NCBI GenBank assembly: GCA_963748625.1
Contig: CAVVJT010000010.1
Location: 416,001-480,000 of the forward strand
Length of the DNA stretch: 64,000 nt
Reading direction: 5' to 3'
Origin: an uncultured Chloroflexia bacterium
Lineage (GTDB): Bacteria > Chloroflexota > Limnocylindria > Limnocylindrales > CSP1-4
Shown here: one piece after another, positions 36,709-57,233 of the stretch
How positions within the stretch are numbered: position 1 is the stretch's first letter
Layout of the letters: the number at the start of each line of letters is the position of its first letter
Translations under genes and position numbers: made by a program
The notes under the pieces: model-generated
What the model saw: only the letters and a program-made list of their open reading frames with translations
What the model was told of the DNA's origin: nothing
Databases searched by the model: none

Positions 36709-37806
36709 TCAGCTCCTTGCAGCTGTGGAAGGCTTGCGGTCGGGATCGGGCAGGATGGCGTCGCGGACCTCGACCTGCAGGTCCGCATAGGCGGCCAGGA
36801 ACTGGCGCATGGTGCGGCGCGACGCGCCGTACCCCTCGAGCTCGCCCGGGGCGAGCCCGTCAGGCTCGTAGGCGAGGCGGAACTCCGGCGAACGGTCGAG
36901 CAGCTCGCCGAGCACGGCGGCCTCGACCGGCTCATCGAGGCTGGCCTCGACCGGAAGGCCGGACGCGTTGAGGGAATGCTGCCAGGCGGGCGGAATGGTC
37001 AGGATGATGTCGCCACCGAGGAGCTGGCTCCACGCGAGGTGGTGGCGATAGGCGCCGCCCAGGAGCCGCGTCCGGTACCCGCGCTCGCGATAGATGCTGT
37101 GGGCGCGCTTGAAGACCGCGACCCCTGCCCACTCGGCACGCCCGGGCGTCAGCAGGACATCGTCGCGCTCGGCGGCCGCCTTCACCCAGTCATCGAGGCG
37201 GCCCACCATCAGCGTGCACACCGGGTGCAGGTCCACGGACAGCCCGGCAGCTGCCCGCCGGTCCAGCCCACGCTCGACCGCCTCGGCCACCGCGATCGCG
37301 CCGGCGACCGTGAAGTTGGCGGTGGCGTTGACCTCCACGCCCCGGAAGGTGGCCTCCTCGATCGCCGAGAGGCCCGCGCTCGTGACCGGCAGTTTGACCT
37401 GCATGTTGGGCCCCAGCGCGAAGAGCTCAAGCGCCTGGGCGAGCATCGCGTCGGGGTTGCGGGACAGGCGCGGATCAACCTGGGCCGAGAGGCGGCCCTG
37501 GCGGCCGCCCGTGCGCTGGTGGACGGGCTCCAGCAGGGCCGCTCCCCGTGCAGCCACCTCCTTGAGGAGGCGCCACGCGATGTCGTCCTCGGCGATCGCG
37601 GGGTCCTCGATGACGAGCTCGCGGGCGCGGGCATGCCAGAGCGCCCGCTCGGCACGGACGATGCCCAGGACGATCGGCGGGTTGGATGTCGCCCCGGTCG
37701 CGCCATTCGCCATGGCATAGGCCAGGTCGTCGGGGCCGCAAGAGTCGTTCCAGAACTCGGTCCCGGTCTCCTGGACGCCCCGCAGCAGGATCGTGGTGTC
37801 GGTCAT
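36709..37806 (-). CDS. Transaldolase-family protein (atypical)
   Basis: FWNDSC, GATSNP, QVKLP (Schiff-base Lys), MVGRLDD, GAYR; overlaps the iolB stop. Confidence 0.85.
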
Positions 37807-38648
37807 CGAGCAGTCTCCCGCGGTGCCGCCGGATCCCAGTTCATGAGCCAGCGATGGTCGGGGTCCACGGTGAAGCGCCAGACGCGCTCCGGCCCGGCCA
37901 TGATGTTGAGGTACCACGTGTCGTACCCGGCCGGTGCGCCCACCACGTGGTAGCCACGCGGCACCAGGATCACGTCGAGATCCTGCGCGGTCATGGTCTC
38001 GTCGAGCGAGCGGTCCGGCGTGTAGACGCGCTGGAACGCGAAGCCCGTCGGCCGCGCGAAGCGGTAGAAGTACAGCTCCTCGAGCTGCGACTCGTTGGGC
38101 GGGTCGTCCGTGTCGTGCTTGTGGGGCGGATAGCTCGACCAGTTGCCGCCGGGCGTGTAGGCCTCCACCGCGATCAGGCGTCCGGCCTCCGCCTCGGGTG
38201 GCAGGAGGTTCTTGATCATCCGCTCGTTCGCGCCCGCGCCGCGGGTCTCCACGCGGATGGTCTCCGGCGTGACGACAGCCGTCCGGTGGACGTCACCGCC
38301 CGGCGCCGCGGCGATGGCCAGCAGGACGCGCGTCTGCGCCACCACCTCCACGCCCTCACCGGGGGCGCACAGCACCACGCCGGCGGGCGGGTCATCGAAG
38401 ACGGACGTCCGCTCCCCCACTGCGCCGAGCACAACCCCGCCGACGGTGACCACGGCGGTCCCCTCGAGCACGAGGACGAGCACCTCCCGGTCGTCCCCGG
38501 GCCGGTCCACGCGCCCGCCGGCGGCGAGCTCGTACACGTCGAAGGACGTCCACGTCCACCCGGCGTCCGCCGGGGAGAGCCGGTGGATGGCTCCCGTGGT
38601 GTCCGGCGGCGCGGCCGGACGCACGAGCTGCCCCACGGTGCGGGTCAC
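37803..38648 (-). CDS. iolB: 5-deoxy-glucuronate isomerase
   Basis: GNWSSYPPHKHD, LEELYFYRF, VPRGYH, YLNIMAGP. Confidence 0.93.
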   Translation of the reverse strand: MTRTVGQLVRPAAPPDTTGAIHRLSPADAGWTWTSFDVYELAAGGRVDRPGDDREVLVLVLEGTAVVTVGGVVLGAVGERTSVFDDPPAGVVLCAPGEGVEVVAQTRVLLAIAAAPGGDVHRTAVVTPETIRVETRGAGANERMIKNLLPPEAEAGRLIAVEAYTPGGNWSSYPPHKHDTDDPPNESQLEELYFYRFARPTGFAFQRVYTPDRSLDETMTAQDLDVILVPRGYHVVGAPAGYDTWYLNIMAGPERVWRFTVDPDHRWLMNWDPAAPRETAR

Positions 38649-40549
38649 TTCCCCGCTCCCCCGCCCTGGAACGGGGCGCCCGGGATCATCAGGTAGCGCT
38701 GGCGGCCCTTGTTGCGGTCGAACTCCTCGCGCGCGGCGTTCACGGCCGGCATCTCGGACACCATCGGCGTCGCCATCTCCCACCAGGAGTTGGCGTAGCC
38801 CTTGACGCGCTCGTCCCAGTCCGTCTGGACGACGATGCACACGGTCTCGGTGCCGGAGCGGGCGTCGGCGAGGGCCGCGCGGAGCTCCGGGAGCGTGGTG
38901 ACCTCGAGCGCCTTCGCGCCCATGCCCTGGCACATCTTCACGAAGTCCAGCTGCATCACGGGGCCGTCGTACGCGCCCGACGGGCCGCGGTAGCGGTAGT
39001 GGCAGCCGAAGCCTTCGGCGCCAACCTGCTCGGACACCCGACCGACGCTGGAGTAGCCCTTGTTGTCCACGATCACGATCGTGAGCTTGAGGCCCTCCTG
39101 GACGGCGGTGGTGATCTCGTTGCTCATCATCTGGAACGAGCCGTCGCCGACCATGACGATGACTTCCCGGTCCGGCGCGGCGAGCTTCGCGCCCACGCCG
39201 CCGGCGATCTCGTAGCCCATCGTGGAGTAGCCGTACTCCACCTGGTAGGACTGCGGATCCCGGGAGCGCCAGAGCTTGAGCAGGTCGCCGGGCAGCGAGC
39301 CCGCCGACGTGACGACGACGTCGCGGGCGTCGGTGGACGCCTCGACCGCACCGATGACCTCGCCCTGGGTCAGGATCTCGCCCACGGAATGGTTGTAGAC
39401 GCGGGTGACCTCGGCGTCCCACTCGCGGTTGAGGGCGGCGACGCGCTCCCGGTATGCAGGCTCGGTCGAGTAGTCGCCCAGGGCCACCGCCAGCTCCTCG
39501 AGCGTCGCGCGCGCATCCCCGACCAGCGGGATCGCTGCGTGCTTGTAGGCGTCGAACTCGGCCACGTTGATGTTGATGAACCGGACGTCCGGCTCCTGGA
39601 ACGCAGTCTTGGACGCGGTCGGGAAGTCGGTGAACCGGGTCCCGATCCCGATGACCACGTCCGCCTCGGGCCCGATGACGTTGGCCGCGAGCGTGCCGGA
39701 CACGCCGGCCCCACCGAGGGCGAGCGGGTGGTCGTAGGGCATCGAGCCCTTGCCGGCGTGGGTCTCGGCGACCGGGATGCCGGTCTGCTCGGCGAAGGCG
39801 CGCAGGGCATCGGTGGCCTCGGAGTAGCGGACGCCGCCACCCGCGAAGATCACGGGGCGCTTCGCCTCGCGAATCCAGGCGGCAGCCGCCGCGAGGGAGT
39901 CCCGGTCCGGCCGGTTGCGCGGGATCGCCCACACACGCTTGCCGAACATCTCCACCGGGTAGTCGAACGCGTAGGTCTGGATGTCCTGCGGCAGGCCCAG
40001 GAACACGGCGCCCGTCTCGGCAGGCGAGGTGAGGATGCGCATCACCTCGGGCATGACGGTGATGACCTGCTCAGGGCGGTTGATGCGGTCCCAGTACCGG
40101 ACGACCGGGCGGAACGTGTCGTTCGCGCTGGTGTCCTGGCTGTGCTGCCACTCGAGCTGCTGGAGGACCGGGCTCTGGACGCGCTCGGCGAAGGCGTCGC
40201 CGGCCATCAGCAGGACGGGCACGTGGTTGATGGTCGCCGAGGCCGCGCCGGTGACCATGTTGGTCGCTCCCGGCCCGATGGAGGTGAGGCACGCGAACGC
40301 GCCCAGGCGGTTCTTGAGCTTGGCATAGCCGACGGCCGCGTGGACCATCGACTGCTCGTTGCGGGTCAGGTAGTACGGGAAGTCCGCCTCGGCCTGCTGG
40401 ATCGCCTGGGCGACGCCGCCGATGTTGCCGTGGCCGAAGATGCCCCAGAGCCCCGCGAAGAAGCGGTGCTCGACCCCGTCGCGCTCGACGTGCTGGACCG
40501 CCAGGTAGTTGATGATCGCCTGTCCCGTGGTGAGCCGGACCGTTGCCAC
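38645..40549 (-). CDS. iolD: 3D-(3,5/4)-trihydroxycyclohexane-1,2-dione acylhydrolase
   Basis: GIFGHGN, RNEQSM, SIGPGATNM, PVLQQLE, AGSLPGDL.KLW, EYGYSTMGYE, GDGS; GGAGG RBS. Confidence 0.93.
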   Translation of the reverse strand: MATVRLTTGQAIINYLAVQHVERDGVEHRFFAGLWGIFGHGNIGGVAQAIQQAEADFPYYLTRNEQSMVHAAVGYAKLKNRLGAFACLTSIGPGATNMVTGAASATINHVPVLLMAGDAFAERVQSPVLQQLEWQHSQDTSANDTFRPVVRYWDRINRPEQVITVMPEVMRILTSPAETGAVFLGLPQDIQTYAFDYPVEMFGKRVWAIPRNRPDRDSLAAAAAWIREAKRPVIFAGGGVRYSEATDALRAFAEQTGIPVAETHAGKGSMPYDHPLALGGAGVSGTLAANVIGPEADVVIGIGTRFTDFPTASKTAFQEPDVRFININVAEFDAYKHAAIPLVGDARATLEELAVALGDYSTEPAYRERVAALNREWDAEVTRVYNHSVGEILTQGEVIGAVEASTDARDVVVTSAGSLPGDLLKLWRSRDPQSYQVEYGYSTMGYEIAGGVGAKLAAPDREVIVMVGDGSFQMMSNEITTAVQEGLKLTIVIVDNKGYSSVGRVSEQVGAEGFGCHYRYRGPSGAYDGPVMQLDFVKMCQGMGAKALEVTTLPELRAALADARSGTETVCIVVQTDWDERVKGYANSWWEMATPMVSEMPAVNAAREEFDRNKGRQRYLMIPGAPFQGGGAGK

Positions 40550-40617: not shown

Positions 40618-41382
40618 CTAGGCCGAACGCGCCGTTGCCAGCGCCAGCGAGAGCCGGCGGGCGACGTCGACCACGTGGGCCGCGGCCTCCGGCACGCGCT
40701 CGAGGGTGAGCCGGACGCTGGGTGCGTCGATGCCGATGCAGCCGACCGGGACGCCGCCCGGACCGAACACCGGCGCCGAGATGCAGCGGGTGTGGGCGTC
40801 GTTCTCCTCGTCGTCGAACGCGTACCCGAGCGTCCGGGTCGTCTCGAGGTGGGCGCGCAGGGCGGCCCGCGTCGTGATGGTCCTGGGCGTCCGTCCGGGC
40901 AGCGAGGCCGGGATCGCCACGAGGTCCCATGCGAGCAGCGCCTTGCCGGCGGAGGTGCAGTGCAGCGCCACGTGGCGCCCGCTGGTGGGCACGACGCGCA
41001 GGGGGTTGTCCGTCTCGACATCGTCGATGACGATGGCGCGGCCATTGTCCGGGACCGCCGCGTGGGCGCACTCCCCGGTCAGGTCCACGAGCTGCTCCAG
41101 GAACGGACGGGCGGCGCGGCGCAGGCGCTGGGTGCTGATCGACAGCACGGTGTCGCGGCGCATCGCCGGCCCTAGGACGAACCCGTGACCGTCCGCGGGC
41201 AGCGCGTACCCTGACGCCACGAGCGTCTGCACGAGCCGCAGTGCCGTTGACTTGTGCACGTCCAGCTCGGCAGCGAGGGCCGCGAGGGGCACGCCACGCC
41301 CCCGGCGCATGGGATCCGCGTCGGCCTCGGCCAGCGAGTCAAGGATGCGCAGGCCGCGTTCGAGCGACTGGATGGTGGTCAT
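40618..41382 (-). CDS. IclR family transcriptional regulator
   Basis: IQSLERGLRIL, KSTALRL, HCTSAGKALL, GYAFDDEE, CISAPV. Confidence 0.93.
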   Translation of the reverse strand: MTTIQSLERGLRILDSLAEADADPMRRGRGVPLAALAAELDVHKSTALRLVQTLVASGYALPADGHGFVLGPAMRRDTVLSISTQRLRRAARPFLEQLVDLTGECAHAAVPDNGRAIVIDDVETDNPLRVVPTSGRHVALHCTSAGKALLAWDLVAIPASLPGRTPRTITTRAALRAHLETTRTLGYAFDDEENDAHTRCISAPVFGPGGVPVGCIGIDAPSVRLTLERVPEAAAHVVDVARRLSLALATARSA

Positions 41383-41389
41383 GCCGCGG

Positions 41390-41418
41390 AGCGTAGTCCG
41401 CAACCATCGGGGCGTCAA
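41390..41418 (-). promoter_or_regulatory. Sigma70-type promoter of leaderless IclR gene
   Basis: Minus strand TTGACG-N17-TACGCT-N7-ATG. Confidence 0.65.
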
Positions 41419-41524
41419 GGTGCGTTCTGCGCAACCATCGGCTTCCTCGCCGGGCCAGCCGGGCTCGCCGGGCCAGCCCCCGGCGGATCGCTCCACCGGG
41501 GGCCTCGCTCGATGACAAGGAAGG

Positions 41525-42553
41525 CTACGCGGTGACCTCGTCAAGCTTGACGGGCCGGTTCTCGCGCCAGCTGCGGGTGCAGGCGACGGCGAGGCGAAGG
41601 GTCTCGTAGGCGTCGTCCGGGCCCGGGCCCACCGGCTTGCCGGCGCCCAGGTTCTCGAAGAAGACCTCCAGCTCGCGGCGGTAGGCCACCTCGAAGCGGT
41701 CCATGAAGTCGCCGTAGAGGTCGCTCTCGGTGGCGACGTCGCGGAAGTGCGTGGCCGGGGTCTTGCGCTCGCCGTCCACGACGACCTTGCCGATCGCGCC
41801 CGCAACCTCTGCCCGGATGTCGTAGCCCCACTTGCTGTGACGGGCCGTCTCGACGACGCCCAGGGCGCCGTTGCGGAACTTCATCATGATCACGGACGTG
41901 TCCCAGTCGTCCGCCTTGGCGAAGCGCTCGTCGAACAGCACTGAGGCCCAGGCATGGACCTCCTCCACCTCCCCCACGAGGAAGCGGGCGACGTCGAGGT
42001 CATGGACGGACATGTCGAGGAACGAGCCGCCGCAGGTGAGCAGGAACTCGAGCGGGGGCGGGTTGGTGTCGCGGGAGAGGGCGCGGAACTGCTCGATGCG
42101 GCCGAGCTCGCCCGAGTCGATCAGCTGCTTGGCCCGCTCGTAGCCGGGGTCGAACCGGCGCATGAAGCCGACCTGGACCGGCAGCCCGGTCTCCTTCCAG
42201 AGCTCGACGATCTTCGCGGTGTCGGAGAGCTCCTGGGCGATCGGCTTCTCGGTCCAGACCGCCTTGCCGGCGCGCAATGCCGCCTCGATGTGGGTGGCGT
42301 GCATCGTGGTCGGCGTGTTGATGACCACCGCCTCGACGTCGGGGTCGTTGATGGCGTCGATCGGGTCGAGCGTGGCGCGCCTCGCGTTGGCAAGCACGCG
42401 GCCGGCCTCGGCAACCTCCGCGATGGGATCCGCGACCACGATGACGTTGGCGTTCGGGATCGTGCCCAGGTTGCGCACATGGACGCGGCCCATGCGCCCG
42501 GCGCCCAGCACCGCGACGCCGATGTTGTTGGGATCGCGCAGTGTGAAGCCCAT
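41525..42553 (-). CDS. Inositol 2-dehydrogenase-like Gfo/Idh/MocA protein
   Basis: GAGRMG, EKP, GFMRRFDP, SRD, DMSVHD, GYDIRAE. Confidence 0.88.
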   Translation of the reverse strand: MGFTLRDPNNIGVAVLGAGRMGRVHVRNLGTIPNANVIVVADPIAEVAEAGRVLANARRATLDPIDAINDPDVEAVVINTPTTMHATHIEAALRAGKAVWTEKPIAQELSDTAKIVELWKETGLPVQVGFMRRFDPGYERAKQLIDSGELGRIEQFRALSRDTNPPPLEFLLTCGGSFLDMSVHDLDVARFLVGEVEEVHAWASVLFDERFAKADDWDTSVIMMKFRNGALGVVETARHSKWGYDIRAEVAGAIGKVVVDGERKTPATHFRDVATESDLYGDFMDRFEVAYRRELEVFFENLGAGKPVGPGPDDAYETLRLAVACTRSWRENRPVKLDEVTA

Positions 42554-42596
42554 CAGTCCTCCTTGGCGGGCCATGGATGGCCCGCGTCTTCCACGA

Positions 42597-43523
42597 CTAG
42601 GTCCAGAGCGCCCGCACCCGGGCTGCGACCTTCTCGGGCGTGAGCCCGTGCTTGTCGAGCAGCCAGGCGTTGGGTGCCGATTCGATCCAGGTGTCCTCGA
42701 TCCCGATGCGCAGCACCGGGCGCGGATCGGCGCCAGTGACGATCTCCGCCACCAGGCCGCCGAGCCCGCCCACGATCGAGTGCTCCTCGGTGGTGACCAC
42801 GATCGGCACGTTCGCGCACGCAGCGGCGATCGCCTCCGCGTCCACCGGCTTGATGGTCGGGACGTGCATCACGCCGACCGAGATCCCCTCCTGGCCGAGC
42901 AGCTCGGCGGCCGCGAGCGTGCGGGCGGTCTGCTGGCCGGTCGAGATGAGCAGCGCCTCCGTCCCCTCGCGGAGCAGGAGCACGCGCCCCGGCTCGAAGA
43001 CGTACTCCGGCCCGAAGACGTCCGGCCCGGACTCGCGGTCGAGGCGGAGCCACACGGGCCCCTCGTACGTGGTGGCCCAGCGGGTCATCGCGGCAACCTC
43101 GGACGCGTCTGCCGGGCAGAGCATCGTCATCCCGGGCAGCGCCCGCACGATGGCGATGTCGGCGATGTCCACGTGCGTCTTGCCGCCGTAGCCCGCCTTG
43201 ATGCCGGTGTAGGCCGCGCCGATCTTGACGTTGGCGTGGGTCTGGGCGACCGACATGCGCACCTGGTCGAGCGCCCGGTTCGAGAAGAAGATCCCGAACG
43301 AGCTGAGCCAGGGCACGAACCCCTCGAACGAGAGCCCGGCCGCGACGGAGACCATGTTCTGCTCGGCGATGCCCATCTGGAGGAACCGGTCCGGGTAGGC
43401 GGCCTCGAACTTGGCCGCCTGCGTGGAGGAGGCGAGATCCGCGTCGAGCACGAGCAGGTCCGGGTTCTCCGCGGCGATCTCGATGAGCGTCTCCGCCCAG
43501 ACCTCGCGCTGTGCCTTGCTCAT
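42597..43523 (-). CDS. Split transketolase, C-terminal subunit
   Basis: DADLASST, GIAEQNM, DQVRM, G.TH, TIKPVD, EEHSIVGGLG. Confidence 0.93.
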   Translation of the reverse strand: MSKAQREVWAETLIEIAAENPDLLVLDADLASSTQAAKFEAAYPDRFLQMGIAEQNMVSVAAGLSFEGFVPWLSSFGIFFSNRALDQVRMSVAQTHANVKIGAAYTGIKAGYGGKTHVDIADIAIVRALPGMTMLCPADASEVAAMTRWATTYEGPVWLRLDRESGPDVFGPEYVFEPGRVLLLREGTEALLISTGQQTARTLAAAELLGQEGISVGVMHVPTIKPVDAEAIAAACANVPIVVTTEEHSIVGGLGGLVAEIVTGADPRPVLRIGIEDTWIESAPNAWLLDKHGLTPEKVAARVRALWT

Positions 43524-44461
43524 GCCTGGGCCTCCCCGCCGGCAGCGGTGGCGTCGGCCCCGAGCAGCTCGGCGCGGAAGGCGGCGTGCTCATCGGGCCC
43601 GGGTGCGCGGGCATGCCACTCGGCGCGGCCTTCGGTCGCTGCGAGTCCCTTCCCCTTCTGGGTGCGGGCCAGGATCATCGTGGGCGTGGTGCCCGAGCCC
43701 GCGGCCCGTGCGTCGTCACAGGCACCCACGATCTGGCCCATGTCGTGCCCGTCGATCTCCAGCACTCGCCAGCCGAAGGCGGTGAAGGCTGCCCGGAGGT
43801 CCACGCCGGCCCACGGATCACGCCGGCTCCCCCGGTGCTCCTCGTCCTCGCCGAGACGCCAGCCGTACTGCTGCATCCCGTTCCAGTCGAGGATCGCGGT
43901 CAGGTTGCCGGCCCCGTAGCGCGGCGCCACGTGGATCGTCTCCCAGACCTGGCCCTCCTGCGTCTCCCCGTCGCCGAGCATCGCGAAGACGTGCGCGGGG
44001 TTGCCCCGCCGACGGAGGCCCATCGCGATACCGAGCGCCATCGAGAAGCCCTGGCCCAGCGAACCCACGGATGCGTCGATCCCGGGCGCCAGGTGCATGT
44101 CGGGGTGGCTCTGGAGACGGCTGTCGCCCGTGTCGAAGGTTGTGAGCTCCTCCTCGGGAAAGTAGCCGCGCATGGCGAGCACGGTATACAGCCCCACGCC
44201 CGAGTGGCCCTTCGAGAGCACGAAGCGGTCCCGCTCCGGCCAGTCGGGGCGCGCCGGGTCGATCCGCAGCACGTTGAAGTACAGCGCGACCAGCATGTCC
44301 ATGGCGGACAGCGGGCCGCCCATGTGCCCCGCCTGGGCGCGGGCGATGGTCTCCACGAGGAGCAGGCGGCCCCGCTTGGCGGTCGCCTCGAGCTCTGCGA
44401 CGTCGGCGGCGGTGAGGTTGGCGGTGCGGTTTGTGGTGCCGGTCGGTGCGGGCTCGCCCAT
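43520..44461 (-). CDS. Split transketolase, N-terminal ThDP-binding subunit
   Basis: GHMGG, RDRFVLSKGH, LQSHP, GSLGQG, GDGETQEG, TQKGKG. Confidence 0.93.
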   Translation of the reverse strand: MGEPAPTGTTNRTANLTAADVAELEATAKRGRLLLVETIARAQAGHMGGPLSAMDMLVALYFNVLRIDPARPDWPERDRFVLSKGHSGVGLYTVLAMRGYFPEEELTTFDTGDSRLQSHPDMHLAPGIDASVGSLGQGFSMALGIAMGLRRRGNPAHVFAMLGDGETQEGQVWETIHVAPRYGAGNLTAILDWNGMQQYGWRLGEDEEHRGSRRDPWAGVDLRAAFTAFGWRVLEIDGHDMGQIVGACDDARAAGSGTTPTMILARTQKGKGLAATEGRAEWHARAPGPDEHAAFRAELLGADATAAGGEAQA

Positions 44462-45354
44462 CAACCGACCGTCGCGCCGAGGCGCGAGAGCTGCGCCTCC
44501 AGCCACTCGCGGTTGACGCGGGCGACGTCCTTGGGATCGTCCGGGCGTGGTGTCCTGCTCCAGGACGAACCAGCCGTCGTAGCCCCGCTCGAGCAGTGCG
44601 GCGACGCACTCGGGGACCTGGGCGATCCCCTCCCCGAGCGCCGGGAAGATGAAGCCCTTCAGCGCCGGCCGAAGCACCAGGTCCTCGCCTTGGGCCTGCG
44701 CGAGCACCTGGCGCCGTCGACGTCCTTGAGGTGGATGTGCCGGACACGGTCCCCGTACGTGCCGAGCATCTCGAGGCTGTTGCCGCCGCCATAGGCCAGG
44801 TGGCCGATGTCAAGGCACCAGCCGACCTTCGCGGGATCGGTCTCGTCGAGGAACCGCTCGGTCTCGGCCTGGGTCTCCACGTACGTGCCCACGTGGTTGT
44901 GGAAGACGACGCTCATGCCCAGGGGCGCGATGCGGTCAGCGAGGTCGTGGAGGCCCTGCGCCAGGTTCTTCCACTGCTCGTCGGTGAGGCCGTTGGCCTC
45001 GTCCACGTGGCCGGCCTCGCCGCGGCGGCGGTCATCGCCGGCCTCGGCCGCGATCAGCAGCTTGCCGCCCGCCGCGTGGAGGCGGTTGGCGATGGTGAGG
45101 CCCCGCTCCATCGCCTCGTCGTAGCGGTCCTTGTCCCGGAACGGCAGCCCGACGAACGCACCAACCATCTCGAGCCCGCGCTTGTCGAGCTCGACCTTCA
45201 GCTCCTGCGGGTCCTCGGGCATGCCCGGACCCCACTCGGTGGCGTCATACCCGGCCTCGACGAACTCGTCCATCATCCGCTCGTAGGGCAGCCAGGCGCG
45301 GTACTCGGGGACGTCCGGGTTGTTCCAGTTGACGGGCGCGGTCGCGATGCGCAT
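44461..45354 (-). CDS. IolE-like TIM-barrel protein; two frameshifts (~44712, ~44540)
   Basis: MRIATAPVNWNN, HNHVGTYVE, LDIGH, HLKD, then LGEG...GWFVLEQD; reconstructed stop overlaps the transketolase ATG (TGATG). Confidence 0.8.
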
Positions 45355-45397
45355 CGGGGCTCCCTGGGTGGTCACGGGCGGTGGGTCCGCCCGTTGA

Positions 45398-45411
45398 TGT
45401 AAGCGCTTACA
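45398..45411. promoter_or_regulatory. Perfect LacI-type palindromic operator
   Basis: TGTAAGCGCTTACA between the divergent IolE-like operon and LacI gene. Confidence 0.85.
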
Positions 45412-45446
45412 ATCAGTTCCCGAACTGTAGTAGGCTGCGCGTCGGA

Positions 45447-46810: not shown

Positions 46811-48697
46811 CTAGAGCAGCTCGGCGCGCTGCTTCGTCAGGTTGCCCTCGTACTTGACACGGGCGGCGTTGACCAGGTCGGATCCGGAGACCTCGGCCAC
46901 CGGGACGTCCCACCAGGTGTCGTAGCCGGGGGCGCGCTTGTCGGGCGAGACCGCGACGTGGATCACGGTGACGCCGTCATGGGCGCGGGCCTGCTCGATG
47001 GCGGCGCGGATCTCGTCCTCGGTGCCGGCGCGGAGACCGAGGGCCCCCATGGACTCCGCGTGCTTCGCGAAGTCGACCGGGATGTAGCCGCCCGACAGTC
47101 GGCCGGTCTTGCCGTCGCGGAACCGGAGCTCATTGCCGAACTGGGGCACGCCGCAGTTCCAGGCGAGGTCCTTGATGCACTGGTAGCCGTGGTTGTCGAA
47201 CACGATGATCGTGATCTTGAGGCCCTCGGCGACCGCGGTGACGATCTCGGAGTTGAGCATCAGGTACGTGCCATCCCCGATGGCGACGACCACCTCGCGG
47301 CCGGGCTCCGCCATGGCCACGCCGATACCGGCGGGAATCTCGTAGCCCATGCAGGAGAAGCCGTACTCGAGGTGGTAGGCCTTCGAGTCCTCGGGCCGCC
47401 AGAGCTTGAGCAGGTCACCCGGGAGCGACCCCGCCGCGCAGATCATGGTCGCGTGACCGCCAACAGCGTCGTTGACGATGCCAATGACTTCGGGCTGGGA
47501 GAGGTCGCCAGGCTCGCCGTTGGGAGCCCGGTGTTGCGAGACGATCTCGTCCCACTCGGACTTGAGCGCCGCCACCGTCTGGCGGTACTCCTGGCTCGAC
47601 CCGGTGGCGCCGGCCGCGGCAAGGCCCGCGCTGATCGCCTTGAGCGCCTCGCGCGCGTCGCCGATCAGCGGCAGCGAGCGCATCTTGTGGGCATCGAAGG
47701 CGTTGATGTTGATGCCCACGAACGCGACGTCCGGGTCCTGGAACGCGGATCGCGACGCCGTAACGAAGTCGCCCATGCGTGTGCCCACGCCGATGACGAG
47801 GTCGGCCTCCTTGGCCAGCCTGTTGGCGGCAAGGCCGCCCGCGGAACCGATCGGGCCGACGTTGTACGGGTGGTTCCAGGGGAGGACGCCCTTGCCGGCC
47901 TGGGACTCCGACACGGGGATGCCGTAGGTCGTCGCGAGGGTGTCGAGCACGGCCTCGGCACCGGCGTAGATCGCGCCGCCACCGGCAACGATGAGCGGGC
48001 GCTTGGCATTCCTGATGAGCTCCACGACCTCGTCGACCAGCTCAGCCTCGGGGCGGGGCCGGCGCACGCGCCAGACACGCTTCTCGAAGAAGCGCTCCGG
48101 CCAGTCGTAGACCTCGGCCTGGACGTCCTCGGGCAGGGAGACGGTCACGGCGCCGGTCTCGGCCGGGTCGGTCAGCACGCGGAACGCCTCAGGCAGGCTG
48201 GAGAGCAGCTGCTCGGGGCGGGAGATGCGGTCGAAGTAGCGCGACACCGGGCGGAAGGCGTCGGAGGCGGACACGTCGTGCTCGATCGGATGCTCGACCT
48301 GCTGGAGCACCGGGTCCACCAGGCGGTTTGCGAAGTAGTCGGACGGGAACAGGAGGACCGGCAGCCGGTTGACCGTGGCTGTGGCCGCGCCAGTGATCAT
48401 GTTGAGGGCGCCCGGGCCGATCGAGCTGGTGCAGGCGAAGGCACGCATGCGGTTGTTGTGCTTGGCGAAGGCCGTGGCGATGTGGACCTGGCCCTGCTCG
48501 TTCTGCGGGCGGTAGTACGGCATGGCGTACTCGTCACCGAGCTCCTCGAGCGCCTGGCCGAGACCTGCCACGTTGCCATGGCCGAAGATGCCCCAGACGC
48601 CGGCGATGAAGCGCTGCTCGACGCCATCGCGCTCCACGTACTGGGCGGCCAGGAAGCGGACGATCGCCTGCCCGACGGTCAGCCGTACGGTTCCCAC
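46811..48697 (-). CDS. iolD: Second trihydroxycyclohexane-1,2-dione acylhydrolase paralog
   Basis: GIFGHGNVAG, SSIGPGA.NM, AAGSLPGDL.KLW, YHLEYGFSCMGYEI, WWDVPVAEVS. Confidence 0.93.
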   Translation of the reverse strand: MGTVRLTVGQAIVRFLAAQYVERDGVEQRFIAGVWGIFGHGNVAGLGQALEELGDEYAMPYYRPQNEQGQVHIATAFAKHNNRMRAFACTSSIGPGALNMITGAATATVNRLPVLLFPSDYFANRLVDPVLQQVEHPIEHDVSASDAFRPVSRYFDRISRPEQLLSSLPEAFRVLTDPAETGAVTVSLPEDVQAEVYDWPERFFEKRVWRVRRPRPEAELVDEVVELIRNAKRPLIVAGGGAIYAGAEAVLDTLATTYGIPVSESQAGKGVLPWNHPYNVGPIGSAGGLAANRLAKEADLVIGVGTRMGDFVTASRSAFQDPDVAFVGININAFDAHKMRSLPLIGDAREALKAISAGLAAAGATGSSQEYRQTVAALKSEWDEIVSQHRAPNGEPGDLSQPEVIGIVNDAVGGHATMICAAGSLPGDLLKLWRPEDSKAYHLEYGFSCMGYEIPAGIGVAMAEPGREVVVAIGDGTYLMLNSEIVTAVAEGLKITIIVFDNHGYQCIKDLAWNCGVPQFGNELRFRDGKTGRLSGGYIPVDFAKHAESMGALGLRAGTEDEIRAAIEQARAHDGVTVIHVAVSPDKRAPGYDTWWDVPVAEVSGSDLVNAARVKYEGNLTKQRAELL

Positions 48698-49275: not shown

Positions 49276-50319
49276 GTGGTGATCGATCGGAGTGCCCCGG
49301 CCACCATTCGTGACGTCGCCGAGCGCGCCGGCGTCTCCACCGCCACCGTGAGCCGGGTGCTGGCGGGCATCGGCAACCCCAAGCCGGACACCGCGGCCGC
49401 TGTGATGGCCGCCGTCGAGGCGCTCGACTACCGCCCGTCCGGCGTCGCCCGCTCCCTGCGCATGAAGCGGACGCGGACGCTGGGCCTCATCGTCACTGAC
49501 ATCCAGAACCCCTTCTTCCCCGAGCTCGTCCAGGCCGCCGACCAGGCCGCCCGCGATCTTGGCTACTCGATCATCCTGGGGTCCGCCGCCTACGACGAGC
49601 ACCGCGCGGTCGAGTACCTGGACCTCATGGTCGACCGGCGCGTGGACGGCCTGATCATCGCGTCCTCGCAGGTTTCGGAGGAGAGCTGGCGCTGGCTGGC
49701 CAACTCCCCCGTCCCCGTCGTGGTCGTCAACGCGGAGCCCGCCGGCGTGCCGATCACCGTGGTCACCAGCGACAACGCGGCTGGCGCGCGGATGGCCGCC
49801 GAGCACCTGCTCGGGCTGGGCCACCGCAAGCTCGCCTACGTCCGGGGGATGGAGGCGTTCAGCGCGGACGTGCCGCGCTTCCGCGGCTTCCAGGACGCGT
49901 GTCGTGCGGCCGGCGTCGCCGACGAGGACCTCTTCGTCATTCGGGGTGACGCGGGCTTCGACGGCGGCGAGCGTGCCGCCACCGACCTCCTGGCCGCGAA
50001 CACCGGCGTCACCGCCATCGCCTGCCACAACGACCTGACCGCGATCGGCGTTCTGCGGGCGCTGCGCAGCGCGCGCGTGCGCGTGCCGGATGAGATCAGC
50101 GTGATCGGTTGCGATGACATCTCGGCAGCGTCCTGGGTCGTGCCGGCCCTGACGACCGTTGCCCAGCAGAAGGCCGAGATGGGCAGGCTCGCCGTTGAGC
50201 AACTGGCCACCATGCTCGACCACCCGGACGACGCCGGGGAACCCGGGACCACCCGCGTCCCCATGGTTCTCCGCGTCCGCGAGTCAACCGGCCCAGCCCC
50301 CGTCCCGGGCCAGGGCTAA
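49276..50319 (+). CDS. LacI family transcriptional regulator (candidate regulator of the inositol regulon)
   Basis: TIRDVAERAGVSTATVSR, NPFF, GHRKLA, HNDLTAIG, LRVREST. Confidence 0.94.
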   Translation: MVIDRSAPATIRDVAERAGVSTATVSRVLAGIGNPKPDTAAAVMAAVEALDYRPSGVARSLRMKRTRTLGLIVTDIQNPFFPELVQAADQAARDLGYSIILGSAAYDEHRAVEYLDLMVDRRVDGLIIASSQVSEESWRWLANSPVPVVVVNAEPAGVPITVVTSDNAAGARMAAEHLLGLGHRKLAYVRGMEAFSADVPRFRGFQDACRAAGVADEDLFVIRGDAGFDGGERAATDLLAANTGVTAIACHNDLTAIGVLRALRSARVRVPDEISVIGCDDISAASWVVPALTTVAQQKAEMGRLAVEQLATMLDHPDDAGEPGTTRVPMVLRVRESTGPAPVPGQG

Positions 50320-50361: not shown

Positions 50362-50374
50362 GCAATCGATTACA
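50362..50374. promoter_or_regulatory. LacI-type operator overlapping the start codon of the IolE-like gene
   Basis: GCAATCGATTACA(TG). Confidence 0.7.
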
Positions 50375-51273
50375 TGTTCCGCATCGCCAATGCGCCGTGC
50401 TCCTGGGGCGTCATCGAGGGCATCGAGGGTGACCGCGCCGGCTGGGTCCGGGTCGTGGATGAGATGGCCGCGGCCGGCTACGTCGGCACCGAGCTGGGTG
50501 ACTGGGGCTTCATGCCCACCGATCCCGACGAGCTCTCCGCCGAGCTGGGTTCGCGCGGTCTCGCGCTGATGGGCTCCTGGGTCTCGGTCTGGCTCTACGA
50601 CAAGAGCCGCCACGAGGAATCCGCGAACGACGCCGTCCGCACCGCCAAGCAGCTCGCCCGTGTCGGGGGCCCCGAGGCTGTGGTCGTCCTGGGCCTCGAC
50701 CCGTACGGCGACGCGCACCGCACGACGATCGCCGGGCGCGTCCACCCCGAGGACGGCCCGACCGAGGAGATGTGGAAGACCCTCGCCGAGGGCTACAACC
50801 ACGTCGCCCGCCGCGTGATGGACGAGGCCGGCATCCGGACCGTCGTGCACCAGCACATCGGCACCTGGATCGAGACCGAGTCCGAGGCGCGCCGCCTGTT
50901 CGAGATGACGGACCCGTCCGCGCTGGGCCTGTGCCTCGACACCGGCCACTGGACGTTCGGCGCCGGCGGCGACCCGGTTGCGGCCGTCCGCGAGTTCAAG
51001 GACCGCGTCTGGCACGTCCACTTCAAGGACTGCGACAAGGCTGTGGCCGAGGCCTCGCGCGCCAACGGCTGGTCGGGCCCCGAGTCGGTCGGCCAGGGCG
51101 TCTTCTGCGAGCTGGGTACGGGGTCGGTGGACTTCCCGGCGATGCTCAAGGCGCTCGAGGAGATCGAGTACACGGGCTGGATCGTCGTGGAGCAGGACGT
51201 GCTCCCCGGCATGGGCAACCCGGGCCTCAACGCCATCCGCAACCGCGAGTACCTCAAGGGTCTCGGCGTCTAG
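50374..51273 (+). CDS. IolE-like TIM-barrel protein, close paralog of 35805..36704
   Basis: [37 protein letters not shown]. Confidence 0.87.
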   Translation: MFRIANAPCSWGVIEGIEGDRAGWVRVVDEMAAAGYVGTELGDWGFMPTDPDELSAELGSRGLALMGSWVSVWLYDKSRHEESANDAVRTAKQLARVGGPEAVVVLGLDPYGDAHRTTIAGRVHPEDGPTEEMWKTLAEGYNHVARRVMDEAGIRTVVHQHIGTWIETESEARRLFEMTDPSALGLCLDTGHWTFGAGGDPVAAVREFKDRVWHVHFKDCDKAVAEASRANGWSGPESVGQGVFCELGTGSVDFPAMLKALEEIEYTGWIVVEQDVLPGMGNPGLNAIRNREYLKGLGV

Positions 51274-52805: not shown

Positions 52806-52896
52806 GCGCGCCCGGTTGGCTGCAGCGCGCCCGGTTGGCTGCAGCGCGCCCGGTTGGCTGCAGCGCGCCCGGTTGGCTGCAGCGCGCCCGGTTGGC
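52799..52896. repeat. 19-bp tandem repeat x5
   Basis: GGCTGCAGCGCGCCCGGTT repeated without spacers. Confidence 0.92.
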
Positions 52897-52920
52897 GGCG
52901 CCAGGCGCAGGCGGGCGTCC

Positions 52921-53613: not shown

Positions 53614-53634
53614 CAGTACGGACCGAAGAACAGA

Positions 53635-55165
53635 CTAGGAGTTGCCCGGGAAGACCAGGGACAGCGGGCCCTGCTTGCCCGGCTCCGGCCAGCGCTCGGT
53701 GACCATCTTCTGCTGGGTGAAGAAGCGGACGCCGTCCTCACCACGCATCGCCAGGTCGCCGATCGCGGACTCCTTGGCGCCCGAGAAGCTCATGTAGCCG
53801 GCGGGGACCGGGATCGGCACGTTCACGCCGATCATCGGGACCTCGACCTCGAGCTTGAAGCGCCGCGCCGCGCCACCGTCGGTCGTGAAGACCGCGGTGC
53901 CGTTGGCGTACTTGTGGTCGTTGATCAGCTTGAGACCCTCGTCGAACGTCTCCGCGTACACGATGCCGAACACCGGGCCGAAGATCTCCTCCTGGTAGAT
54001 CTTCATGTCCGGGGTGACATGGTCGAAGAGCGATGACGCCCAGGAAGTAGCCGTCCGGGTTCTCCGGGCTCTTGAACGTCCGGCCGTCGACCAGCAGCTC
54101 GGCACCCTCGGCCTCGCCGATGCCGATCCACTTGATGATCGACTGGCGGTGCTCGTCGGTGTAGATCGGGCCCATGTCGGTGCCCGGCGTCCATGCCGTC
54201 GCCGATCTTGAGCTTGGCGATCCGATCGATGATCTTGGGCTTGAGCCGCTCGGCCGTGTCACCGACCGCGACCATCAGCGTCTGGGCCATGCAGCGCTCG
54301 CCGGCCGAGCCGAAGCCCGACGCGACCACCGCGTCAGCGACCAGGTCGATGTCCGCGTCGGGCAGGACGAGCATCGCGTTCTTGGCGCTGGTGTAGGACC
54401 CGACGCGCTTGCCGCGCTTGGTGCCTTCCTCGTAGACGTACCGGCCGACGGCCGTGGAGCCGACGAACTGGATCGCCTTGATGTCCGCGTGCTCGACGAT
54501 CGCCTTGACCGCGTCGCGGCCGCCGTACACGACGTTGAACGTGCCGTCGGGGCCACCGGCCTGCGTCCACAGCTCGGCCTGGAGCTGCGTGGCGCCCGGG
54601 GTGTGCGAGGACGGCTTGAGGATGACGGTGTTGCCGGTCATCAGCGCGATCGGGTAGATCCACGTCGGGACCATCACCGGGAAGTTGAACGGCGTGATCG
54701 CCGCCACGACGCCCAGCGGGCCGCGCAACGTGAACGCGTCCACCTTGGTCGCGACGTTCGGCGTCATCATGCCGGCCATGTGGACGGGCAGGCCGCACGC
54801 GAAGTCGATGGTCTCGATGCCGCGGAGGACCTCGGCGAGGGCGTCCGGGAAGGTCTTGCCGTGGTCGCGCGTGATGAGTCGCGCCAGCTCCTCCCGGTTC
54901 TCATACATGAGCATCCGGAAGTTGAAGAAGATGTTGCTGCGCGCGATGAGGGGCATGTCGCGCCACGCCGGGAAGGCGGCCTTCGCGGACGCGACGGCGG
55001 CGTCGACCTCGGCCGTCCGCCACGCGGCACGCGGGCGATCACCTGGCCGGTGGCCGGGTTGTAGACGGGGCCCGTCTGCTCGGGCAGGACCTCGACGGCC
55101 GTGCCGTTGATGTAGTGGGAGAGGACCGGCAGGATCGCCGACTCGCTCGCGGGTTCGATGGCCAT
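53635..55165 (-). CDS. mmsA: CoA-acylating (methyl)malonate-semialdehyde dehydrogenase (IolA/MmsA); three frameshifts (~55015, ~54185, ~54035)
   Basis: ITPFNFP, QFVGST, AKNAM, GSAGERCMA, EEIFGPV, IGVNVPIPVP, FFTQQKMVTERW across 4 overlapping ORFs. Confidence 0.88.
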
Positions 55166-55227: not shown

Positions 55228-56328
55228 TCAAGCGGTCTTGACGTCGGGGTTGGGCATCATGATGTCGCGGATGACGCCCTGCAGATCGTGATACGACTGC
55301 ACGAAGCCGCGCAGGGTCCGAACGGTGGCTCCATAGCCTGCGAACTCGTCGATGGCGAGGCCATTCGGCTCATACGCACGCACGAAGTCGGGGATGCGCT
55401 CCATCAGGTCGTCGACCAGGTGCTGGTCCACCGGCACGTCGATCCGCGGGACTGTGTCGATGCCAGAGCCGTTGAAGCGGACCTGCCAGGCGTAGGGCAT
55501 CGTCAGGACGACGTCGCCGCCGACGAGCTCGGTCCAGTGGAGCCGGTGGCGGTAGGCCGCGGCCAGCAGGCGGGTCCGGTAGCCGCGTTCCTGGAAGATC
55601 CCATAGGCACGCTTGAACGCGGCGATGCCGGCCCAGTTGGCGGCATCGGGGTCCAGGGCAACGTTGTCCTTGTCGACGAGGACCTTCATCCAGTCGTCGA
55701 GCCGGCCGACCATCAGCGAGCAGACGGGACCGGCCTTGGACATGTCGATGCCGGCCGCCTCAGCGCGCGCCAGGCCTCGCTCGACCGCCTCGGCGGCGGC
55801 GATGCACTGGGCGACCGTGAACACGACGGTGATGTTGGCGTTCACGCCCTGGGCGGTGGCGTCCTCGACCGCCTGGAGCCCCGCCGCGGTGCACGGGAAC
55901 TTGACCTGGATGTTGGGAGCGAGGGTGCTGAAGTGGACCGCCTGCTCGGCCATGCGGGCCGGGTCGCGGTAGTTGGCCGGGTTCGTCTGGAGGCTCAGGC
56001 GGCCCTTGCGGCCATCATGCGCGTCGAAGACCGGCTGGAGGATGGATGCGCCACGGACGCCCATCTCCTCGATCAGCGCCCAGGTGAGCTCCACCTCGGA
56101 CCAGGTCGGGTTGGCTGCGATCATCTCGCGCACCCGCGGGGTCCAGTGGTCCTTCTCCTTCTTCATGACCTCGGTGACGATCACCGGGTTCGACGTGGCG
56201 CCGGTGCCGCCCCGCTCGACGGCGTATGCGAGCTCGGCGACCGCGCAGGAGTCATTCCAGAAGTCGGTGGGGGTGGCCTCGACCATCCGCGTGAGCGGGC
56301 TGTCGACGGTCGCGATGGTGGTCGTCAT
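55228..56328 (-). CDS. Transaldolase-family protein (atypical), paralog of 36709..37806
   Basis: [30 protein letters not shown]; overlaps the iolB stop. Confidence 0.87.
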   Translation of the reverse strand: MTTTIATVDSPLTRMVEATPTDFWNDSCAVAELAYAVERGGTGATSNPVIVTEVMKKEKDHWTPRVREMIAANPTWSEVELTWALIEEMGVRGASILQPVFDAHDGRKGRLSLQTNPANYRDPARMAEQAVHFSTLAPNIQVKFPCTAAGLQAVEDATAQGVNANITVVFTVAQCIAAAEAVERGLARAEAAGIDMSKAGPVCSLMVGRLDDWMKVLVDKDNVALDPDAANWAGIAAFKRAYGIFQERGYRTRLLAAAYRHRLHWTELVGGDVVLTMPYAWQVRFNGSGIDTVPRIDVPVDQHLVDDLMERIPDFVRAYEPNGLAIDEFAGYGATVRTLRGFVQSYHDLQGVIRDIMMPNPDVKTA

Positions 56329-57233
56329 CGGGCGGTCTCCTCGGCTGCCGGGTCGGCCGGGACGGCCGGCGGCGCCCAGTTCATGAGCCAGGCGTGGTCC
56401 GGGTCCAGCGTGAAGTACCACGCACGGTTGGGGCCCGCCATGATGTTGAGGTAGTACGCGTCGTAGCCCGCCGGGGCGCCGAACGGGTGGTAGCCGTCGG
56501 GCACGACCACGACATCGCGGTCGCCTACGGCCATGCTCTCGTCAAGCGTGCGGTCGGGCGTGTAGACCCGCTGGAAGCCGAAGCCCGTGGGCTTGGCGAA
56601 GCGGTAGAAGTAGAGTTCCTCGAGCCTCGCCTCGACCGGCGGGTTCTCCGTGTCGTGCTTGTGCGGCGGGTAGGAGGACCAGTTGCCGCCCGGGGTGTAG
56701 ACCTCGAACGCGATCAGGCGCCCCGCCTCGGCCGCGGGCGGGAGGATGTGGTGGATCCGGCGCTCGGTGTTGCCGGAGCCACGCGTCTCCACGTGGATGT
56801 CCCCGGGAGCGATGAGGGCCGTGCGGCGGACCTGGCCGCCAACCGAGGCGCCGATCGCGAGCAGCACGCGGCCCTGCGCGGTGACCGTGACCGTCAGGCC
56901 GGGCTCCACCAGGAGCACGGGCGGCGGCGGGCCGTCGAACACCGACTCGCGCGAGCCGATCACGCCGAAGTCGTGGTCGCCCGCCGTGGCGGCCGCGTGG
57001 CCCTCGAGCACGAGGACCAGGCGCTCCTGGTCGTCGGCGTCCCGCGTGACGGTCTGCCCGGCGGCGAGCTCGTAGACGTGGAAGCTGGTCCAGTCCCAGC
57101 CCGCCTCGGCGGGGCTGAAGCCCTGCACCTCGCCGTCGGGACCGGGTACGGCCGCGCGGCGGAGGAGGTGCCGCGCGGCCGTCGATCGGTCGGAGTTGGC
57201 GCCAGGGTCCCCGGTTGTGGTGGGGGCGGTCAT
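56325..57233 (-). CDS. iolB: 5-deoxy-glucuronate isomerase, second copy
   Basis: GNWSSYPPHKHD, LEELYFYRF, PDGYHP, YLNIMAGP. Confidence 0.93.
   Translation of the reverse strand: MTAPTTTGDPGANSDRSTAARHLLRRAAVPGPDGEVQGFSPAEAGWDWTSFHVYELAAGQTVTRDADDQERLVLVLEGHAAATAGDHDFGVIGSRESVFDGPPPPVLLVEPGLTVTVTAQGRVLLAIGASVGGQVRRTALIAPGDIHVETRGSGNTERRIHHILPPAAEAGRLIAFEVYTPGGNWSSYPPHKHDTENPPVEARLEELYFYRFAKPTGFGFQRVYTPDRTLDESMAVGDRDVVVVPDGYHPFGAPAGYDAYYLNIMAGPNRAWYFTLDPDHAWLMNWAPPAVPADPAAEETAR

Follow-up and report, generated by a model that had tools for sequence, protein, structure and literature searches.

How might a bacterium finish the breakdown of myo-inositol when the kinase and the aldolase of the textbook pathway cannot be recognized among its genes? 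This question is raised by a 64,000-nucleotide stretch of DNA (hereafter the window) from an uncultured Chloroflexia bacterium (Chloroflexota; Limnocylindria; Limnocylindrales; CSP1-4), which covers positions 416,001 to 480,000 of contig CAVVJT010000010.1 in assembly GCA_963748625.1. An inositol island spans 28 kb to 57.3 kb of the window, and within it two genes, here termed TAL1 and TAL2, encode divergent proteins of the TAL_FSA family, each beside a copy of iolB. In the canonical pathway of the Bacillus subtilis type, the steps of IolG, IolE, IolD and IolB are followed by the PfkB kinase IolC and the class II aldolase IolJ, which breaks the C3–C4 bond to give dihydroxyacetone phosphate and malonate semialdehyde, the latter being the substrate of IolA/MmsA. 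The island would share the upstream enzymes, the bond that is broken, the malonate semialdehyde and the MmsA end, but it has a gene for neither IolC nor IolJ, and the three-carbon unit would appear as bound or free dihydroxyacetone. The reading put forward here is that TAL1 and TAL2 may be members of a separate clade within the transaldolase/FSA superfamily, one that replaces IolC and IolJ through a transfer reaction (probability roughly 0.45); that the TAL-like enzyme acts on free 5-dehydro-2-deoxy-D-gluconate (DKG), by whichever route its products leave, seems probable.

The G+C content of the window is 71%, and real genes were chosen by means of third-position G+C and named with Pfam and NCBIfam profiles (Table 1). 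Two operons on the minus strand carry the genes of interest, in the order iolD1-iolB1-TAL1-iolE1-GFO in operon 1 and iolB2-TAL2-mmsA in operon 2. The original prediction placed two iolB genes in overlap with transaldolase-family genes, and both pairs lie where it put them, with profile scores above cut-off for both partners. The overlap itself is real in both operons, but not at the length of 95–115 nt seen between the longest open reading frames (ORFs): the junction sequence gives a stop/start overlap of 4 nt (ATGA) at 37806-37803 and at 56328-56325. In operon 1 the GTG start of iolB1 likewise overlaps the stop of iolD1 in a common GTGA, and the ATG of the first IolE-like gene, at 36704, lies 4 nt past the TAL1 stop with AAGGAG ahead of it. 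The second operon does run directly from TAL2 into mmsA, as had been claimed, with the mmsA start 62 nt past TAL2 and behind GGAGGA, although mmsA is broken by three 1-nt indels, as described below. As for the remaining enzymes that the island was said to encode, IolG, both IolD copies and both IolB copies exceed their model cut-offs, and the three IolE-like proteins do not (177–188 bits against 290).

The absence of IolC and IolJ that had been noted for the island holds for the whole genome, the assembly of which is 98.3% complete with 7.74% contamination. Pfam and NCBIfam scans found no kinase gene in the window. The best genome-wide match to the IolC model (TIGR04382) scores 168.2 bits against a cut-off of 300 and is a generic PfkB gene beside a gene for an SDR protein; the other PfkB genes encode two KDG kinases beside Eda aldolases, a ribokinase, a fructokinase and a 1-PFK-type kinase. 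DUF2090 (PF09863) has no match in the whole genome, and no iol-linked class II aldolase was found in the genome or the window, the class II aldolase genes lying beside DhaK/DeoR (C10:268741) and beside a 1-PFK-type hexose kinase (C7:729605). The TAL-like enzyme thus stands where the textbook kinase and aldolase are expected.

If the TAL-like clade replaces IolC, the two should avoid each other among genomes with IolB, and such an anti-correlation had been predicted; it was seen in three lineages. A sample of 201 genomes from the organism's own class was searched with TAL2 (E<=1e-30), the IolB model and the IolC model (E<=1e-60), which gave matches to TAL in 72 genomes, to IolB in 110 and to IolC in 55 (40 of them over cut-off). 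Among the 110 genomes with IolB, 50 had TAL only, 50 had IolC only, two had both and eight had neither, and in the two with both the IolC-like gene adjoins an extra iolB copy. When six unpublished IolB-bearing genomes are left out (n=104), the counts become 48, 47, two and seven. The division follows families: in f3, IolB and IolC each occur in 52/66 genomes and TAL in 0/66, the canonical cluster having the order IolC-IolD-IolB without TAL; in f1, TAL occurs in 45/60 and IolC in 2/60; in f4, TAL occurs in 26/66 and IolC in 0/66. TAL matches of this class lie within 2.5 kb of IolB in 46 of 82 cases, a proportion that varies with identity to TAL2 (6/7 at >=72%, 39/52 at 45–62%, 1/23 at 63–71%).

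The other two lineages were sampled in the same size, each around one carrier of the clade. The 201 Bacteroidales genomes include six with IolB, which is enough for a consistency check only: four have IolC alone (357–376 bits, directly beside IolB) and two have TAL alone, namely G365, where TAL and IolB are 2 kb apart and no IolC match reaches the cut-off, and the chosen centre itself, with no IolC match at E<=1e-40. In the Acidobacteriota class, 24 of the 201 genomes have IolB at >=248 bits, of which 14 carry IolC over cut-off without TAL, seven carry TAL only (one being the chosen centre), two carry TAL with a sub-cut-off IolC-like protein (284.6 and 270.5 bits) and one carries neither, so that TAL together with an over-cut-off IolC was found in 0/24. 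A low-scoring IolB-like group in this sample (14 genomes at 205–224 bits, plus the unpublished G537) was excluded, its proteins probably being something other than IolB; the group holds IolC in one genome, a partial TAL in one and only distant TAL-family matches in three. Across the three lineages, an IolB-bearing genome rarely has both a TAL-like gene and IolC.

The clade extends well beyond the organism's own class. Close relatives of TAL2 are annotated merely as 'transaldolase' or 'transaldolase family protein' and belong, by record title, to metagenome-assembled genomes (MAGs) of Chloroflexota/Limnocylindrales. A 54%-identical gene is found in IolG-IolD-IolE-TAL-IolB-MmsA strings in one Mahella MAG and one Clostridiales MAG, and the Mahella protein, when used as query, retrieved 80 loci at 60–72% identity from about 12 phyla by record titles, which we take to be Bacillota, Calditrichota, Spirochaetota, Chloroflexota, Acidobacteriota, Verrucomicrobiota, Pseudomonadota, Fusobacteriota, Planctomycetota, Bacteroidota, Actinomycetota and Myxococcota. 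Counted out to 10 kb from the TAL-like gene, the neighbours in this cross-phylum set are IolB (50/80), IolD (49/80), IolG (47/80), MmsA (43/80) and IolE (40/80), with >=3 iol partners at 49/80 loci; as many of the contigs are short, these counts are lower bounds. IolB is on the same strand and <400 nt away at 36 of these 80 loci, half of them (18) having it as the gene directly upstream and half (18) directly downstream, and at 38 of the 80 loci of the TAL2 set, a pairing that is more than chance. When all ORFs up to 8 kb away were clustered without bias, and a family was reported if present at >=5 loci, the outcome was the iol partners, LacI regulators, ABC or SSF transporters, SDR proteins and an IolC-IolJ fusion; no Dak family and no further kinase or aldolase family reached 5 of the 80 neighbourhoods. 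IolC over cut-off was absent genome-wide from 37 of 40 cross-phylum genomes, these 40 having been picked from the 80 because the locus had iol partners without IolC.

Phylogeny and gene fusion agree with this association. A FastTree tree of 76 rows (thinned at 80% identity from 183 sequences, those with stops or outside 300–420 aa being dropped) places TAL2 and the cross-phylum group in a 57-row clade (SH-like 96) rich in IolB, IolD and MmsA neighbours, with TAL1 branching just outside it in a weak placement. A separate 17-row clade of P0253-like proteins (SH-like 100; about 30% identity; many phyla) was at first taken to be a distant iol-linked group, was rejected as such on its neighbours (>=3 iol partners in 0/22 loci) and served as an out-clade control. 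A second clade of the Gln-type TAL family, at about 30% identity to TAL2 and spread over many phyla (loci L096-L116), has as neighbours genes for SDR (10/21 loci), xylose-isomerase-like, GFO-type and 2-oxoacid dehydrogenase proteins instead of iol genes. Eight of 11 long relatives are fusions with pathway partners (four IolE-like+TAL, three TAL+IolB and one ALDH+TAL; P0272-P0279, P0129), and in P0129 the N-terminal portion reaches 341.4 bits on the IolE model, over the cut-off of 290. The singletons P0129 and P0151 may be read-through artefacts, and some of the recurrent fusions may have arisen through indel errors where stop and start sites overlap; the recurrence is nonetheless stronger evidence than the singletons. 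In two RNA libraries there are contigs of relatives that cover mmsA, TAL and iolB, among them one of 406 nt that runs across the iolB-TAL junction, although these are not sequences of this strain (word share <=0.18 in all runs holding them) and are no proof of transcription. Together, the loci point tentatively, at slightly less than an even chance, to a widespread 'inositol transaldolase pathway' in about 12 phyla, in which one Gln-type TAL_FSA enzyme would stand in for the IolC and IolJ steps.

What kind of enzyme do TAL1 and TAL2 encode? They are 51% identical, share an FWNDSC motif and belong to the TAL_FSA superfamily, their PF00923 scores far exceeding the cut-off of 27 bits. Both fall below all the curated transaldolase cut-offs, the best score being on NF002881 (99.7 bits for TAL1 and 116.4 for TAL2, against 367), with 66 and 78 bits on TIGR00876 (233.75) and 55 and 50.1 on TIGR00874 (396.2), and the FSA model TIGR00875 gives 47.9 bits against 245.95. 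Among solved structures, the long-type transaldolases 3r5e (E 4.6e-22) and 3clm with its variants (about 1e-14) come closest. An AlphaFold model of TAL2 built on a 34-sequence alignment (pLDDT 95.6) has the TIM-barrel transaldolase fold, and in Foldseek it matches 7oey, 3r5e and 3clm with TM scores of 0.79–0.83 at 20–22% identity.

The active site was compared in an alignment of the TAL-like proteins with 3r5e and the genome's own long Tal (L091, G000:C10:894127-895134) and small Tal (L092, G000:C10:847370-847972); the reference residues are Asp17, Glu96, Lys132 and Phe178 in TalB numbering, with which the titles of PDB mutant entries agree. Lys143 (VKFP, strand 4) aligns with the Schiff-base lysine of the solved and in-genome transaldolases, and Asp26 (WNDS), Asn165 and Thr167 (Asn-x-Thr), Ser204 and Arg209 (S-L-M-V-G-R) and a second arginine, in AAYRH, are likewise retained. 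Two positions differ: Gln114 occupies the position of the transaldolase Glu, with Gln >=90% conserved there over 34 diverse family members, and Met206 that of the transaldolase Phe or FSA Tyr (Phe178/Tyr131). The alignment thus holds three states, namely Glu/Phe in the long Tal, Gln/Tyr, the FSA pattern, in the small Tal, and Gln/Met in the TAL-like proteins, in which the loop preceding the second phosphate-site arginine is also shorter than in long transaldolases. Arg209 and the AAYRH arginine could hold the carboxylate of the substrate.

The structure of DKG suits such an active site. When written from C6, DKG reads CH2OH-CO-CHOH-CHOH-CH2-COO-, which has the donor head used by transaldolases and FSA, and in this reversed orientation its C4 and C3 hydroxyls have the D-threo arrangement of fructose. 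To our knowledge, TAL_FSA enzymes take donors with a free C1 hydroxyl and not a C1 phosphate; DKG-6-phosphate would carry its phosphate on the donor C1, so the family assignment argues for an unphosphorylated substrate. From these features we infer a substrate, a cleaved bond and an acceptor as follows. IolG, IolE, IolD and IolB would convert inositol to DKG, the C5 keto group of which, unphosphorylated, would form a Schiff base on Lys143, with the DKG carboxylate placed where the sugar phosphate sits in transaldolase. The C3–C4 bond would then be broken, releasing malonate semialdehyde for conversion by MmsA to acetyl-CoA and CO2, and the enzyme-bound dihydroxyacetone unit would pass to an aldehyde acceptor, most likely glyceraldehyde-3-phosphate, to give fructose-6-phosphate. 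PFK and aldolase would regenerate the acceptor, for which the two PFK genes and the class II FBA gene of the genome are enough. The route would be free of a pathway-specific kinase, and the original description of it as ATP-sparing applies only in part: ATP would be saved if fructose-6-phosphate is used as such, but regeneration of the acceptor through PFK costs one ATP, the same as the textbook route.

The closest competitor differs only in the fate of the three-carbon unit. In it, the enzyme would be an FSA-like lyase with free DKG as substrate and with malonate semialdehyde and dihydroxyacetone as products, the latter being released free and then phosphorylated by DhaKL or some other kinase. 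This version draws equally on the comparative evidence that the enzyme acts on free DKG, and Gln at the Glu96 position is what is found in FSA and in the genome's own FSA-like small Tal. Its weak point is Met206: a methionine in place of the acid/base tyrosine of FSA offers no proton donor, which favours transfer over release. Besides, no Dak gene is linked to the clusters in the census above, and Dak1 kinase was found in only eight of the 37 TAL-only genomes, although these are MAGs of unassessed completeness and other kinases could serve. Together with the missing tyrosine, this makes transfer to glyceraldehyde-3-phosphate the preferred version. The organism's own genome does have DhaK (499.6 bits) and DhaL (239.9 bits), so that release could still operate here; sequence alone does not separate the two versions, and we regard the lyase as rather unlikely overall.

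Several observations weigh against replacement of IolC and IolJ by the TAL-like enzyme. Most of the genomes compared are MAGs, the own-class genomes are kin, such that the pattern there reflects a few family-level events and not about 100 independent ones, and the anti-correlation with IolC is not absolute. Over-cut-off IolC is present elsewhere in the genome in three of the 40 cross-phylum genomes, and it lies beside the TAL-like gene in 12 of the 80 cross-phylum clusters, comprising eight with a bifunctional IolC-IolJ (about 700–838 bits), three with a monofunctional IolC (378–386 bits; L137, L140 and L161, in the order TAL-IolB-IolC-IolD-MmsA with no IolJ in the cluster) and one with IolC and a class II aldolase. 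In these 12 the TAL-like enzyme is an addition and not a replacement, perhaps for a parallel branch. IolB, for its part, is absent from 20 of the 72 TAL-bearing genomes of the own class, and a subclade of Limnocylindria type at 63–71% identity (L039-L088, e.g. L060, L073 and L052) has no iolB but neighbours encoding MmsA, a small cupin, a split transketolase, GntR/FCD regulators, UPF0261, phosphoenolpyruvate-hydrolase-like and phosphoenolpyruvate-utilizer proteins and a three-subunit molybdenum dehydrogenase, which looks like an uncharacterised catabolic island. Since the clade occurs in MmsA loci without IolB, it is not limited to inositol; the constancy of MmsA as partner in the iolB-less loci fits an enzyme that yields an aldehyde of the (methyl)malonate-semialdehyde type. 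Finally, with Gln for Glu, as in the aldolase FSA, the classical transaldolase mechanism may not be taken for granted.

Some of the same observations would suit an accessory transaldolase that rebalances fructose-6-phosphate and sedoheptulose-7-phosphate, or acts on some other ketose, with the kinase and aldolase steps left to unrelated and unrecognised enzymes. Such a role would agree with the transaldolase fold (TM about 0.8 to long transaldolases), the co-occurrence with a complete canonical pathway in nine clusters, the clade members in non-inositol contexts and the split transketolase in the island. It would, however, leave unexplained both the mutual exclusion with IolC in three lineages and the compact six-gene operons, in which there is no room for other enzymes; the genome already has separate housekeeping Tal genes (230.4 and 156.5 bits), and the catalytic Glu has been lost family-wide from proteins that score far under every transaldolase equivalog cut-off. 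We consider an accessory role improbable.

A further point on the negative side concerns this organism alone. Three 1-nt indels, near 54031-54034, 54189 and 55014, cut mmsA into four frame pieces, the breaks are not within long homopolymers, and the whole genome holds no second (methyl)malonate-semialdehyde dehydrogenase over cut-off; the lower pathway might thus be decaying, with mmsA a pseudogene and the cluster no longer working, whatever the TAL-like enzyme does elsewhere. Set against this, the pieces are 78–95% identical to the orthologue at locus L010 and the matched frames are free of stops, all the other iol genes of the island are intact, and other genes of the genome, as well as genes in several relatives' loci, are split in a similar way, as is typical of error-prone assembly. 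Contigs of relatives from four public runs, moreover, show a 1-nt insertion or deletion relative to the window at exactly the three breaks. We take the breaks, without proof, to be assembly errors, and decay appears as improbable as an accessory role.

Least likely of all, and only a slight chance in our view, is that the TAL-like enzyme replaces IolJ alone, its substrate being DKG-6-phosphate from a kinase that is diverged or has escaped recognition. The clusters L137, L140 and L161 with a true IolC and the sub-cut-off PfkB kinases (205–285 bits) of several TAL genomes would suit it. Against it, most carriers lack IolC genome-wide, and the gene has no other kinase family as a conserved neighbour. 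Asn165 and Ser204, which frame the donor C1 hydroxyl, are retained, and TAL_FSA enzymes are not known to use a donor with a C1 phosphate. IolC clusters of the sister family also have no clustered IolJ, so that its absence is nothing peculiar to TAL clusters.

Table 1. Genes of the inositol island, in window coordinates, with the profile matches on which their names are based
Feature	Coordinates	Strand	Profile evidence and remarks
Sugar-type ABC importer	28031..31492	-	Permease 28031-29053, ATPase 29054-30571, binding protein 30725-31492; Pfam BPD_transp_2, ABC_tran, Peripla_BP_4
IolG, inositol 2-dehydrogenase	32238..33230	+	TIGR04380 363.7 bits (cut-off 355); longest ORF from 31935
GFO_IDH_MocA oxidoreductase, last gene of operon 1	34657..35901	-	Pfam GFO_IDH_MocA domains; IolG model 116 bits, sub-cut-off
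IolE-like dehydratase 1	35805..36704	-	TIGR04379 184.1 bits (cut-off 290)
TAL1, divergent TAL_FSA-family protein, 365 aa	36709..37806	-	PF00923 135.4 bits; proposed 5-dehydro-2-deoxygluconate dihydroxyacetone-transferase
IolB1, 5-deoxy-glucuronate isomerase	37803..38648	-	TIGR04378 292.3 bits (cut-off 205)
IolD1	38645..40537	-	TIGR04377 848.5 bits (cut-off 715); start approximate, longest ORF to 41071, match from ORF residue 179
IclR-family regulator	40618..41805	-	Pfam HTH_IclR and IclR_C; longest ORF, domains from residue 147
IolG-like dehydrogenase	41525..42574	-	TIGR04380 331.5 bits, slightly below cut-off 355
Split transketolase	42597..44707	-	C-terminal subunit 42597-43523, N-terminal subunit 43520-44707 (longest ORF); Pfam Transket_pyr, Transketolase_C, Transketolase_N
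IolE-like TIM-barrel protein 2	44659..45585	-	TIGR04379 176.7 bits, sub-cut-off
LacI-family regulator 1	45381..46568	+	Pfam LacI, Peripla_BP_1/3
IolD2	46811..48697	-	TIGR04377 889.9 bits (cut-off 715)
LacI-family regulator 2	49276..50319	+	Pfam LacI, Peripla_BP_3
IolE-like dehydratase 3	50374..51273	+	TIGR04379 187.6 bits, sub-cut-off
mmsA/iolA, CoA-acylating (methyl)malonate-semialdehyde dehydrogenase	53635..55165	-	TIGR01722, pieces of 326.3 and 160.5 bits
TAL2, divergent TAL_FSA-family protein, 366 aa	55228..56328	-	PF00923 128.2 bits; proposed 5-dehydro-2-deoxygluconate dihydroxyacetone-transferase
IolB2, 5-deoxy-glucuronate isomerase, first gene of operon 2	56325..57272	-	TIGR04378 296.1 bits (cut-off 205)

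The three Pfam families of the ABC importer recur beside TAL-iol clusters of other genomes. Its binding-protein gene is N-terminally short with a partial profile match, as is seen also for a xylose-isomerase-like TIM-barrel ORF at 26705-27229 (-), where the match is again partial; each may reflect a further frameshift. The two subunits of the split transketolase each match half of the NF004559 model (230 and 237.7 bits), and a transketolase gene lies within 5 kb at eight of the 29 IolD-bearing loci of the TAL2 set, where relatives have the string IolD-IolE'-TKn-TKc-IolG'. This conserved transketolase may mark a parallel branch, and it could use DKG as ketol donor or rebalance sugar phosphates. 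Shared palindromic operators were sought in the intergenic regions of the island, which yielded nothing useful. Between the third IolE-like gene and mmsA (51316-53322, -) there is a CarboxypepD_reg-domain gene flanked by two DUF1232 genes. Elsewhere in the window, 8318-15406 holds a corrinoid-dependent methyltransferase set (URO-D-like, pterin-binding, RACo activase, DUF1638 and B12-binding proteins) with a GntR regulator, and 16910-20056 (-) a three-part molybdenum hydroxylase (MoCoBD, 2Fe-2S, FAD), the scanned large-subunit ORF of which has no second MoCoBD domain.

How does the proposed transfer reaction compare with systems that are already known? The nearest parallel in chemistry is the sulfofructose transaldolase (BmSF-TAL, PDB 8bc3/8c4i), which reportedly acts on an unphosphorylated ketose with an anionic group at the far end and, by passing the dihydroxyacetone unit on to glyceraldehyde-3-phosphate, avoids the need for a pathway-specific kinase. 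In sequence it is a distant match only (8bc3, E 1e-6 over about 70 residues, 111-179), which does not amount to a close relation; it is small (about 220 aa), whereas the TAL-like protein is of the long type (365 aa) with Gln in place of the catalytic Glu, and its anion is a sulfonate, where here it would be a carboxylate. FSA has in common with the TAL-like proteins the Gln position and an unphosphorylated dihydroxyacetone donor, but it is of the 220-aa decamer type and has Tyr in place of Met. The long-type transaldolases of Corynebacterium glutamicum (3r5e) and Neisseria gonorrhoeae (3clm) have the same barrel, Schiff-base Lys, Asp, Asn/Thr and Ser-x-x-x-x-Arg; the TAL-like proteins are set apart from them by Glu to Gln, Phe to Met, the shorter loop and the placement of their genes in iol operons.

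Within inositol catabolism itself, the fusion of IolC to DUF2090 is likewise a non-orthologous solution for the IolJ step, which the main text of its description derives from comparative genomics and fitness data; it depends on the IolC kinase and is of the DeoC/LacD aldolase type, in contrast to the TAL_FSA proteins, which mostly occur without IolC (Price et al. 2022, GapMind; PMC9007349). The same main text counts 26 inositol users, 16 with IolC-DUF2090, two with IolJ and eight with neither, which leaves room for a third solution, and it makes no mention of transaldolase (PMC9007349). A survey of iol genes scored inositol use by the iolB-C-D-E core, and its article text does not mention transaldolase either (PMC9430895). 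Full-text searches across 8.1 million papers and 0.36 million preprints found no link of transaldolase to inositol catabolism, though supplements (e.g. Table S1 of PMC9430895 and cluster tables) could list such genes. These comparisons point to a probably undescribed way of finishing a known pathway, that is, to a putative new function in a known enzyme family.

Myo-inositol, derived from phytate and plant lipids, is a major carbon source in soil and gut. For its cleavage step, pathway predictors know only IolJ and DUF2090, according to the main text of the GapMind study (PMC9007349). If the proposed replacement is true, the genomes mis-scored as incomplete would be half of the IolB carriers in the organism's own class, roughly one in three in the Acidobacteriota sample and some in Bacteroidales. 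The enzyme would represent a new reaction class in the transaldolase family, combining a carboxylate ketose donor with a Gln-type active site, and would be a candidate for biocatalysis in the synthesis or cleavage of deoxy-keto acids. For the bacteria themselves, it would mean inositol catabolism without a pathway-specific kinase, the carboxylate counterpart of sulfoglycolytic transaldolase chemistry.

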